IMG/VR virus record: IMGVR_UViG_2778261246_000001
Span: 1 to 35,852 of that record
Source of the DNA: a virus
Lineage: Duplodnaviria; Heunggongvirae; Uroviricota; Caudoviricetes
DNA: 35,852 nucleotides
Direction: 5' to 3' (one strand)
The translations under genes and the position numbers were made by a program. This document shows, one piece after another, positions 7,781 through 28,757 of the stretch. Positions within the stretch are counted from its first letter, which is position 1, and each line of letters opens with the position of its first letter. The notes under the pieces are model-generated. The model did no database searches, had not been told where the DNA came from, and saw only the letters and a program-made list of their open reading frames with translations.

Positions 7781-7825
7781 TTGAAATTAATCGTACCGAA
7801 CTGTTTTGTTCGGTATCAGTTAAAT

Positions 7826-7844
7826 GTAACGCTGCGAGCGTTAC
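7826..7844. repeat. 19-bp palindrome GTAACGCT-GCG-AGCGTTAC (copy 1 of 3)
   Basis: Perfect inverted repeat read directly from the sequence, in the ydaT-ydaU intergenic region. Confidence 0.8.
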
Positions 7845-7857
7845 AAGGTGAAAACAA

Positions 7858-8647
7858 ATGGCTTCAAACTGGATAAAGCTCGAAGTTATTACGCCGGATA
7901 AGCCGGAAATATTCAGGCTTGCTGAGATTCTGAATATTGATCCAGATGCCGCATTAGGGAAAGTCATTCGCTTCTGGGCATGGGCGGATCAACAAATGAT
8001 AGACGGTAACGCAGAGTGTAACGCTCGCGGCGTTACAAAAAGTGCAATAGATCGCATCACTTTTATGGCTGGTTTTGCTGATGCGTTAATTCAGGTTGGA
8101 TGGCTGGTCGAAACTAATGGTGTGTTGTCGCTTCCTAACTTTGAGCGCCATAACGGGAAAAGCTCTAAAAAAACGGGCGGTTACAAACGAGAGAGTAACA
8201 AAAATACGAGAACTGAAACGAAAAGGTAACGCTGCCAGCGTTACAAAAACGGATCAAAAAGCGTTACCAGAGGAAGAGAAAGAGGAAGATATAAATACTT
8301 ATCTCCCCCTAAATCCCCCTCGCCAAAAACGAGCGTCTAAAAAATTCGAACCGGAGGCTATCGAGCTGCCTGACTGGTTGCCGGAAACACTCTGGCATGA
8401 GTGGGTTCAGTTCAGGCAGGCATTGCGAAAACCGATTCGAACGGAGCAGGGCGCTAACGGGGCGATACGGGAGCTGGAAAAATTCCGCCAGCAGGGTTTT
8501 TCACCTGAGCAGGTGATTCGACACAGCATCGCCAACGAATACCAGGGCTTGTTCGCGCCGAAAGGTGTTCGACCTGAGACGTTACTCCGACAGGTTAACA
8601 CCGTCTCGTTACCGGATAGTGCGATCCCGCCAGGCTTCAGGGGGTAA
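7858..8647 (+). CDS. ydaU: YdaU-like replication-region protein, reading frame split (+1) between ORFs 7858..8229 and 8090..8647
   Basis: The span is 790 nt, not a multiple of 3; the frame-1 ORF stops at 8227-8229 and the frame-2 ORF is open from 8090; an A7 run at 8167-8173 lies in the overlap. Either a frameshifted pseudogene, a sequencing error or recoding. Confidence 0.55.
8018..8036. repeat. 19-bp palindrome GTAACGCT-CGC-GGCGTTAC (copy 2, one mismatch)
   Basis: Inverted repeat inside the ydaU-like coding region; an additional half-site GGTAACGC at 8005-8012. Confidence 0.75.
8226..8244. repeat. 19-bp palindrome GTAACGCT-GCC-AGCGTTAC (copy 3)
   Basis: Perfect inverted repeat; it contains the stop codon of the first ydaU-like frame. 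Confidence 0.8.
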
Positions 8648-8653
8648 CTGACC

Positions 8654-9400
8654 ATGAAAAATATTGCGACAGGCGACGTTCTTGAACGTATCCGCAGACT
8701 GGCCCCGTCACATGTAACCGCGCCATTCAAGACGGTAGCGGAGTGGCGCGAGTGGCAACTTTCCGAAGGCCAGAAACGTTGTGAGGAGATCAACCGTCAG
8801 AATCGTCAGTTGCGGGTGGAAAAAATTCTGAATCGCTCTGGCATCCAGCCATTGCACCGCAAATGCTCGTTTTCGAATTACCAGGTGCAGAACGAAGGGC
8901 AGCGATACGCGTTGAGTCAGGCGAAATCCATCGCTGATGAACTGATGACCGGGTGTACAAATTTTGCGTTCAGCGGAAAACCTGGTACCGGGAAGAATCA
9001 CTTAGCGGCAGCTATCGGGAATCGCCTGCTGAAAGACGGTCAGACAGTGATTGTGGTTACCGTGGCTGATGTTATGAGTGCCCTCCACGCCAGCTATGAC
9101 GACGGGCAGTCAGGCGAAAAATTTTTGCGGGAACTGTGCGAAGTGGATCTGCTGGTTCTTGATGAAATTGGCATTCAGCGCGAGACGAAAAACGAGCAGG
9201 TGGTACTGCACCAGATTATTGATCGACGGACAGCGTCGATGCGTAGCGTGGGAATGCTGACAAACCTGAACTATGAGGCCATGAAAACATTGCTCGGCGA
9301 GCGGATTATGGATCGCATGACCATGAACGGCGGGCGATGGGTGAATTTTAACTGGGAGAGCTGGCGTCCGAATGTCGTCCAGCCAGGAATTGCGAAGTAA
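8654..9400 (+). CDS. ydaV: DnaC-like replicative helicase loader (AAA+ ATPase), 248 aa
   Basis: Walker [11 protein letters not shown] and Walker B LLVLDEIG motifs; position after the initiator-like gene; matches recalled YdaV. Confidence 0.8.
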
Positions 9401-11762: not shown

Positions 11763-11987
11763 GTGCTGGTGGTGACTGGTTGTTGTGTTCCATTTCTACA
11801 GAATAAAATCACAGAAACTATACCCAATAGTTGTATTGAATCACTGACGAGACAGCCTCATATTTATCAGGACTGGTGTGCGTCTAATACAGGGGGTTGT
11901 CGTGCTGGTTCTCAAATGTGCGCTGGCTATTGCGGCTGTAATGGCAATTTATTGTCTTGCTGTTGTTCTTATGGAGCGGCTTTCTGA
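11763..11987 (+). CDS. Questionable small Cys-rich ORF (74 aa, GTG start)
   Basis: 11 Cys in 74 aa (..CASNTGGCRAGSQMCAGYCGCNGNLLSCCCSYGAAF); no ATG start and no convincing SD; may be a TG-rich chance frame. Confidence 0.15.
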   Translation: MLVVTGCCVPFLQNKITETIPNSCIESLTRQPHIYQDWCASNTGGCRAGSQMCAGYCGCNGNLLSCCCSYGAAF

Positions 11988-12544: not shown

Positions 12545-13357
12545 AACCACCTCCTCAAAAACATGCATTATAAATGCGTGTTTTTGAGGGTTATGTCAAG
12601 CTGTTATGAAACACATAATTGATATGTTGATTAGAGGAGAAGATATAATAAATATGGTTGTTTTTCGTATAACTATTTGTTTTACTTTTAGTTTATGCAT
12701 TCTGTGTGTTAGGAATAAGTTATTAAAGTTTAATAAAAAAATCTCGATGTAGTCCACATAGATTATTGTTACTGAACCTTATTGTGTGTATTAGTTGTGT
12801 TCTGAAATTTCAGCTTAATTATTTATGATGTATTTTTTAACGATAAATATTTTCCCAGGATACCTTTACTGTGTATATAAATAAATTATATACACATAAA
12901 TAATGTAAAGGCGTCCTTTTAGATATATCTTATCAAATGTTAATGACTTGAGTGGGAAATATGATTCCAGCAACTTATCATGTGGCTACTTTATAAAAAT
13001 AATGCCCATATAAAACAACAAGCGAAAAGGATTACGGATAAAAAAGGAGCGAGATGTGCGAACTTGTTATTTTCCATGTTTAACCACCTTAAATAATTGA
13101 TGATGACGGGATGATTGCATCTGTAATGCTTTTATTGAAATGTTATGATAAAAAAGAACTTTTGCATAACATTAAAATGTAATTTATCTAATCGTTTTTA
13201 ATAATAAATGTCGTATTTCTATCCTTGTACCAGCTATTTGATATGTAGTGTTTGTTCATGCTATGTGGGGCTTTACACCATAGCCAGTTTATTTATACTT
13301 TATTCGTCAGCCTGAACAACTGGCATCTGCTGCGCTGCGCCATCGAGAGATTGAGAA

Positions 13358-14895: not shown

Positions 14896-15113
14896 TTTCT
14901 GGGGGGGGCATTTCGTTAAATGAAGCTGTGTTGTGCGCAATTAGCTAATAACACGAATCGTGAATGTATATAATGCGCTTGTTCCTTCGATGGTGTATTC
15001 GAATAACGGATTACTGAATACAGCTATCCCATTAAGGGAACACCGCCATCTGCTCATCGGGAAGAGCCGACCATCATTTAAGTGGTAGTTCGATACCTCG
15101 GTGGCGGTTCTGT

Positions 15114-27978: not shown

Positions 27979-28374
27979 ATGATCACTTACGTGACCTGTG
28001 ATGACGTTGATAATGCGTTTGGGAACGCCTGGACGAGTGAGAACGCTAAAAATAAAGCTGTTTTAATGGCTAATGCCTGGCTTAATGGCTTCAACCTGAA
28101 AATTAACCCATCCCGTATTCCGGAAGAGGTAAAACTTGCGGGAGCATATGCAGCCAGAATTGCCTCATTCGGTAAGTTGTTTCAGCAGAAAAATGATTCT
28201 GGCGTTGTTATCAGTAAAGCCGTGTCGGCTGACGGGGTCAGTGTATCGAAATCATTTTCTGAGTTGCCAGCAAACAGCACTGCATTGCTTGAACCCGATT
28301 TACAGCTTGCGATAGCACTGCTGAAACCGTACGGACTTAGTCGCTCACAAGTCAGGGTTGTGAGGGGGGGATAA
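27979..28374 (+). CDS. Putative head-tail connector / adaptor protein, 131 aa
   Basis: Position in the head-completion block; function inferred from gene order. Confidence 0.45.
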   Translation: MITYVTCDDVDNAFGNAWTSENAKNKAVLMANAWLNGFNLKINPSRIPEEVKLAGAYAARIASFGKLFQQKNDSGVVISKAVSADGVSVSKSFSELPANSTALLEPDLQLAIALLKPYGLSRSQVRVVRGG

Positions 28375-28757
28375 TGGGGCTTCGTGAAGAGATTCAGTCA
28401 GAGGTTGCCGCTGCTTTTGATGAGGATTTAGCGGACGCCGTGAGTGATTTTTCTGGTTCTTACGTTACGCACCGGCACTGGGATCCTGTGACGGAAACTG
28501 GCGGCGAATCCACCGCAATCTATACCGGGCGAGGCGTGTTGACACGTTATAAGCTGGGCAGAATTGATGGGATTAATATTTTGCATGGTGACCTTAAATT
28601 AACCGCTCTGGTATGCGAGGTTACGGATAAACCAGCTGTCGACCATATTATTGAGATTTATGATCCTGTATCAAGGCAGTTACAACGATACGAGGTAATT
28701 ACAGCAAGTGTAGATCCTTCCGCATCAGTTTACTCTATCCAGTTAAGGAGAGCGTAA
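28374..28757 (+). CDS. Putative head closure / head-tail joining protein, 127 aa
   Basis: Start overlaps the upstream stop (TAATG); gene order. Confidence 0.45.
   Translation: MGLREEIQSEVAAAFDEDLADAVSDFSGSYVTHRHWDPVTETGGESTAIYTGRGVLTRYKLGRIDGINILHGDLKLTALVCEVTDKPAVDHIIEIYDPVSRQLQRYEVITASVDPSASVYSIQLRRA

Follow-up and report, generated by a model that had tools for sequence, protein, structure and literature searches.

A lambdoid prophage replication gene that is spread over two overlapping reading frames, with a run of seven adenines in the overlap, can be read in several ways. The gene may be broken, the assembly may be wrong by one base, the frames may be joined during expression, or there may be two genes. 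Here we ask which of these readings fits best, and what the state of the gene would mean for the prophage.

The prophage and its replication region

The window, i.e., the whole stretch of DNA analyzed, is the 35,852 nt NCBI draft contig NLJK01000050.1 (assembly GCA_002227625.1). Its host context is Escherichia coli, and it represents a Rac-type lambdoid prophage at the Rac attachment site, adjoining ttcA. The closest relative among complete genomes is E. coli RM10740, a feral pig isolate (NZ_CP043821.1). We identified racR, ydaS, ydaT, the split gene and ydaV, in this order, followed by DUF1627 and DUF977 genes. The start of ydaV is 7 nt past the normal stop of the initiator gene.

The gap between ydaT and the initiator gene is 77 nt, compared to only 12 nt between ydaT and ydaU in K-12. 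An 8-bp inverted repeat was seen by eye within this gap (TACCGAAC-N6-GTTCGGTA, 7794-7815), and could be a hairpin or an operator. At the start of the window, positions 1-127 are identical to the end of IS1, in inverted orientation, and abut recT at 127. This may mean that an IS1 has disrupted recT in the strain; alternatively, the end of the contig is a repeat overlap, and assemblers commonly use a k-mer size of 127.

One gene in two frames

The original prediction described a gene split across two frames around an A7 homopolymer, and the open reading frames (ORFs) of the window agree with this description at every coordinate (Table 1). ORF1 has an ATG start, encodes 123 amino acids and stops at TAA (8227-8229), about 425 nt ahead of ydaV. 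The open stretch of the +1 frame follows a TAA at 8087-8089, extends from 8090 and ends with a stop at 8645-8647. The earliest start available in it is the TTG at 8096, from which 183 amino acids could be translated. The two ORFs overlap by 140 nt, and the sequence AAAAAAA (8167-8173) is found inside the overlap, as had been reported. The measured span of 790 nt (3 x 263 + 1) likewise bears out the claim that its length is not a multiple of three. The suggestion that A8 would restore a single frame does not hold: a gene with A8 would be 791 nt and still out of frame, and only A6 or A9 restores it.

Table 1. Features of the initiator gene and its surroundings, in window coordinates.
Feature	Position	Strand	Basis or remark
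Whole frameshifted initiator gene (pseudogene)	7858..8647	+	Identical 790-nt CDS is "frameshifted" according to PGAP in RM10740; intact alleles are 789 nt, 262 aa
ORF1: initiator codons 1-105, then 18 out-of-frame codons (TGGYKRESNKNTRTETKR) and stop	7858..8229	+	ORF reading; PHROG 2509 and PHROG 9474 matches
+1-frame open stretch (ORF2)	8090..8647	+	PHROG 2509 positions 96-277; PHROG 6451 "primosomal protein"
A7 run, site of the one-base insertion	8167..8173	+	Alignments with intact alleles (A6); A5 also occurs
Predicted junction peptide across the A7 run in a full-length product			...NGKSSKKRAVTNER...
Palindrome GTAACGC-N5-GCGTTAC, copy 1, 13 nt upstream of the ATG	7826..7844	.	Candidate initiator-binding site (inferred)
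Palindrome copy 2, in the N-terminal coding part	8018..8036	.	Half-site GTAACGC at 8006
Palindrome copy 3, linker-coding region, overlapping the ORF1 stop codon	8226..8244	.	Half-site GCGTTAC at 8261
ydaV, DnaC/IstB-like ATPase (presumed helicase loader)	8654..9400	+	Pfam IstB_IS21 (E 3.9e-20), Bac_DnaA; annotated ydaV in relatives

In frame 0 the run is read as TCT AAA AAA ACG, and in the +1 frame as CTA AAA AAA CGG. The insertion falls at codons 104-105, in a Lys/Arg/Glu-rich linker between two domains. From 8168 on, the +1 frame corresponds to the true linker and C-terminal domain of the initiator (KKRAVT...GFRG), and its earlier part (8090-8167) is non-homologous read-through of the overlap. 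The window contains 24 A or T runs of at least 7 nt. Judged from the sequence, the length of the run at 8167-8173 is not special, and its meaning comes from the homology found on both sides.

Translation of ORF2 on its own was considered and rejected as unsupported. The only in-frame starts before the run are the TTG at 8096 and an ATG at 8117, and no recognizable Shine-Dalgarno sequence precedes either of them. In 10 loci encoding the 123-aa product, no gene was called over ORF2.

Intact alleles and the protein family

We compared the 790-nt gene to 5,426 complete E. coli genomes using megablast, and found that at least 80% of it is covered in 680 of them. After RM10740, the best matches are all 789 nt in length. 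The A run (A6 rather than A7) is the sole difference between the window gene and the intact alleles over the 790 nt. Deletion of one A yields exactly the 262-aa protein WP_001396581.1, whose intact 789-nt CDS is present in E. coli strains 7/2 and PEC422. This allele also has ydaT and ydaV as neighbors, but with A6 it has one reading frame, as opposed to two in the window. In one recent RefSeq record the protein is named "phage replication initiator YdaU family protein".

The A6 reconstruction matches the PHROG 2509 profile ("replication initiation protein") end to end (residues 1-262 to profile positions 1-277 of 277, E 4.7e-88). ORF1 matches positions 1-112 of this profile (E 3.9e-58) and ORF2 matches positions 96-277 (E 8.4e-26). 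Because the two ORFs match two halves of one profile, the frames rejoin at the A run and are not a chance pair of ORFs. Alignment with intact homologues, which had been proposed as a way to locate the point of rejoining, leads to the same place. Homologues that are naturally two separate genes, the alternative raised at the outset, are ruled out by the single-ORF 789-nt genes found by megablast and by the single-polypeptide PHROG 2509 profile. The window gene departs from the one uninterrupted frame of this family by a 1-nt insertion that gives two frames, and thus is a pseudogene member of it.

Several NCBI records (e.g., EGB57999.1 and WP_282873507.1) give the name "endopeptidase" to N-terminal fragments of the initiator. 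We found no support for this name, which looks like a propagated misannotation.

Prevalence and reality of the A7 allele

The exact 76-mer with A6 occurs in 417 complete E. coli genomes, and the exact 77-mer with A7 in one of the 439 complete genomes carrying this 77-nt segment (RM10740). Among the approximately 640 complete genomes with the segment, there is one exact and one diverged case of A7. The RM10740 gene (F1748_RS07965) is 100% identical to that of the window over 790 nt, including A7, and also lies in a prophage at the Rac site. PGAP annotates it as "hypothetical protein, frameshifted". In public annotation, this copy is thus already treated as a pseudogene.

The exact 123-aa product, which can be encoded by the A7 allele only, has index entries in 68 blocks of the assemblies collection. 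It was found on 47 contigs (NCBI isolates, ENA metagenomes and Logan assemblies), compared to at least 1000 contigs for the intact product and 12 for the product that an A5 allele would encode; neither 47 nor 12 should be read as a number of independent events. A regular-expression count of the run found A7 in 10 of 10 further loci with the 123-aa product. The window contig itself is listed with 6 samples.

Alignment of the window with RM10740 showed no gaps in 35.7 kb, so that A7 and every other homopolymer agree. There are four single-base differences, one of which creates a nonsense codon in RM10740 only. This is at window position 28523 (gene 28374-28757), where TAT (Tyr) is replaced by TAA; the gene is intact in the window, and its RM10740 homologue is annotated by PGAP with an internal stop and, oddly, as glutamate 5-kinase. 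RM10740 also contains an IS3-family element (~1.3 kb) at approximately 11844-11863 of the window, and an IS1 (768 bp) at 13265-13273, with a 9-nt overlap that resembles a target duplication. Both elements are absent from the window, so the two prophages are near-identical but have different IS histories. The IS1 end at positions 1-127 of the window is a further difference from RM10740.

It might be argued that the strain truly has A6 and that the seventh A of the homopolymer was miscalled. Indels of one base in homopolymers are the most frequent consensus error in long-read assemblies, and the exact A7 allele is confined to the one complete genome noted above. In addition, the window shows a second homopolymer difference relative to PEC422, with G8 instead of G7 at 14901-14908, and this is the only other indel in the 35.7 kb alignment with that strain. 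It is located in an intergenic region upstream of genes for tRNA-Thr and tRNA-Gly. However, the draft contig and RM10740 agree on A7 although they are distinct in IS content and at four bases. Separate assemblies of non-identical genomes share the allele, and an assembly error is therefore unlikely. The truncated product on contigs of isolate, metagenome and Logan origin and the A7 read in every further locus also count against it. Thus, of the options raised originally, sequencing or assembly error now appears quite unlikely. The A7 allele looks real, and the base call in this assembly is supported indirectly by the others.

Origin of the insertion

A6 twins were identified for two A7 loci. 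The window locus (L007) and that of PEC422, which has A6, show no mismatches and one gap, at the A run, over 6,372 nt. The A7 locus of GCA_030474595.1 (L008) and that of strain 7/2, again with A6, are likewise separated by this gap only, with no mismatches, over an equal length. When compared to each other, the two A7 loci have 149 mismatches in 3,254 nt. They also have different immunity modules, RacR/YdaS in L007 and an HTH_31 repressor with an 84-aa partner in L008. Given mismatch-free A6 twins for two divergent A7 loci, independent slippage events are indicated, and the comparisons point to a change from A6 to A7 that arose more than once. At least three haplotypes were found in the 3' part of the gene among A7 alleles.

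In view of these twins, recurrence is a more parsimonious explanation than one origin of A7 and its later spread. Short-patch recombination could in principle mimic independent origin, because no variation was seen in the first ~660 nt of the gene across the loci compared. The run is A6 in diverged intact alleles. One diverged allele, from E. coli CB209 (NZ_OZ392441.1, 325-1108), has A7 after TCG rather than TCT and is annotated as "frameshifted"; this case could be a long-read homopolymer error.

The existence of A5 is consistent with undirected homopolymer slippage. Overall, the alleles fit an ordinary homopolymer hot spot that slips both ways at low frequency. The A6 tract may thus be viewed as a minor mutational hot spot: public assemblies contain both A7 and A5 alleles, and A7 occurs in unrelated backgrounds.

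Possible recoding at the A7 run

Recoding could rescue the A7 allele if it still gave rise to the full-length initiator, in which case the gene would be functional or tunable. This could occur by +1 slippage of tRNA-Lys on AAA-AAA-A, or by omission of one A by RNA polymerase. A shift of tRNA-Lys from AAA (8170-8172) to AAA (8171-8173) would leave it perfectly paired and would restore the wild-type sequence ...KSSKKRAVT..., and the +1 ORF has no further lesions in any of the A7 loci. However, the split state is rare and derived, both in complete genomes (1 exact A7 versus 417 A6) and by product (47 versus at least 1000 contigs). The A-site codon in frame 0 is ACG, which is neither a stop nor notably rare. 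In prfB-type +1 frameshifting, a stop or slow A-site codon is combined with a Shine-Dalgarno-like stimulator about 3 nt upstream; no AGGGGG-like element was found beside the run, where the upstream sequence is GGGAAAAGCTCT. The A5 allele, moreover, fits random slippage. Frameshifting by -1 at the run was also considered and rejected, as that frame closes after 9 codons (KNGRLQTRE*) and is the wrong direction for the C-terminal frame.

There are known cases in which frameshift mutations are rescued at poly(A) tracts (PMC1088944). In the present case, rescue during transcription would require the mRNA to lack one A. Slippage by E. coli RNA polymerase takes seven or more T "and even more adenine residues", and no deletion-type rescue by this enzyme was seen with the poly(A) runs tested (PMC6260861). 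A7 is too short for useful slippage by this polymerase. Avoidance or use of slippage in bacterial genomes is typically seen at 9 nt (PMC1088944). Using length thresholds from these two sources (PMC1088944; PMC6260861), we found the run to be shorter than those of A9/T9-class slippage (~9 nt, and 8 in some cases), with 7 nt here and 6 in homologues.

We consider that recoding is very unlikely to keep the gene in use, in line with the low rank given to programmed +1 recoding in the original prediction: the split state is rare, +1 stimulators were not found and the run is short. A trace of full-length protein may arise from the A7 allele by a +1 slip, but there is no sign of a designed mechanism.

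Domain structure of the initiator

The C-terminal 124 amino acids of the intact protein share 81% identity with residues 162-285 of K-12 YdaU (BLASTP). Nothing aligned before residue 139, and the N-terminal ~140 amino acids are unrelated. Pfam searches of ORF1, ORF2 and the intact protein returned no family even at E values up to 10, and DUF1376 (PF07120), in particular, has no match in the window initiator at this limit. The description "ydaU-like" therefore stands for the gene position and the C-terminal 124 amino acids (81%), and does not extend to the N-terminal domain, where DUF1376 is lacking.

The C-terminal region also shows a weak resemblance to DnaT. A phmmer search against the PDB matched residues 170-262 to 2ru8_A, the C-terminal domain of DnaT (E 1.6e-4), and to 9zbt_D (E 5.9e-4), with the strongest similarity to DnaT at the ...VNTVS-PDS-IPPGFRG tail. 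The NCBIfam DnaT model scores 17 bits on this tail, below its cut-off of 201. In the preprimosome, this domain of DnaT assembles into filaments on single-stranded DNA (PMC13377028). For ORF1, a single-sequence AlphaFold2 model was too poor for a claim about its fold (mean pLDDT 42.5, pTM 0.32).

These comparisons describe the initiator, at the level of sequence, as a mosaic of a distinct N-terminal domain, a charged linker and a YdaU/DnaT-like C-terminal domain. The N-terminal domain probably binds the origin, by analogy with the lambdoid O proteins, and a division of labor between the two domains would follow from this picture. The pattern suggests that the N-terminal domain and its own DNA sites are exchanged as one module. 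If so, the window initiator would neatly illustrate how modules are exchanged in lambdoid replication regions.

Palindromes in and near the gene

Three perfect palindromes were identified in the window, compared to zero expected from 100 shuffles, and they are spaced at 192 and 208 nt. Eight of the 12 heptamer half-sites of the window fall within 7826-8267. GC content dips to 0.38-0.40 at about 8150-8250. Across diverged alleles, the third palindrome keeps its arms unchanged and its 5-nt spacer varies, even through amino acid changes. The palindromes are candidate binding sites for the initiator, or may mark an origin within the initiator gene, as in lambda.

A fragment that retains the whole N-terminal domain, with three candidate palindromic binding sites around it, raises the question of whether truncation could be of use. 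The A6/A7 tract might be a contingency locus that turns prophage replication off and on, or the 123-aa fragment might be a dominant-negative origin binder. The apparently repeated origin of an identical insertion fits with such a switch, as does the occurrence of A7 on 47 contigs versus A5 on 12. However, A7 is very rare (one exact and one diverged case among ~640 complete genomes), 6-7 A would make a short contingency tract, and the run is one of 24 of its kind in the window. Low-level recurrence is, moreover, expected of a neutral hot spot in a dispensable prophage gene. In a phase-variable locus both lengths would be common and reversible; here A7 is rare and no evidence of reversion was obtained. 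We regard a phase-variable switch or a dominant-negative role as extremely unlikely. It is also highly improbable that the A6 tract is a recurrent, selected off-switch that leaves a free N-terminal origin-binding fragment; such a fragment might block related incoming phages, and +1 slippage might keep a trickle of initiator.

Probable consequences for the prophage

We conclude that a genuine one-base insertion (A6 to A7), caused by replication slippage in the initiator gene of a Rac-type prophage, is very probably the correct explanation, and that the gene is probably inactive. The original prediction had listed a genuine inactivating frameshift among its options. The frameshift stands, as A7 versus A6 is the sole difference, homologues are single genes and many assemblies carry the allele, and we infer the inactivation.

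Under this explanation, replication slippage at the A6 tract would add one A within the interdomain linker. Translation from the normal start would then end 18 codons past the run, at 8229, and the product would be a 123-aa fragment consisting of the N-terminal domain and 18 foreign residues. The C-terminal domain would be missing from it, and the sequence encoding that domain would be left as an unexpressed ORF in the +1 frame, although some residual use of it is possible. The part that would be lost appears to be a conserved functional region, judging by its identity to K-12 YdaU (81%) and its similarity to DnaT. Because ydaV begins only 7 nt past the normal stop of the initiator, polarity is possible, and ydaV may suffer from the early stop.

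The gene appears to be a recent pseudogene, and a +1 ORF that is free of further lesions fits a recent mutation. Relatives have other lesions (IS elements and a nonsense codon), which are consistent with gradual decay of the prophage. The prophage has most likely lost the capacity to start its own replication. Thus, an otherwise largely intact Rac-type prophage is probably replication-defective, and the locus is best annotated as one frameshifted replication-initiator pseudogene, rather than as two genes or a recoding site.

Comparison with known systems

Programmed frameshift systems, including prfB (+1), dnaX (-1 at A AAA AAG) and A9 slippage (Thermus dnaX and IS elements), share with the window a poly(A) sequence at a junction of overlapping frames. 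Unlike in these systems, the two-frame state of the window is not conserved, a +1 shift or a deletion in the mRNA would be needed, and the run is only 7 nt long and without stimulatory elements.

The ydaU gene of the K-12 Rac prophage (b1359, 285 aa, DUF1376; compared here as L014 4120-4977) sits, like the window gene, between ydaT and ydaV. The N-terminal part of K-12 YdaU is DUF1376, whereas the window initiator has an unrelated N-terminal domain. The middle of the K-12 gene contains 4-5 direct repeats like CAGATGTTCAA, with spacings that include 33, 33 and 12 nt (L014 4472-4563), in contrast to the GTAACGC-N5-GCGTTAC palindromes of the window.

In phage lambda, the origin (ori-lambda) lies inside the gene for O, a two-domain initiator, and the helicase loader is P. 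Compared to lambda, the window has only three widely spaced palindromes, one of which is upstream of the gene; its origin is putative, and the loader is DnaC/IstB-like. Residues 76-236 of the window initiator match PHROG 678 ("replication initiation O-like"). As in lambda, a gene for a two-domain initiator is followed by a helicase-loader gene, and repeated inverted-repeat sites and a stretch of lower GC content occur in the linker-coding middle of the initiator gene.
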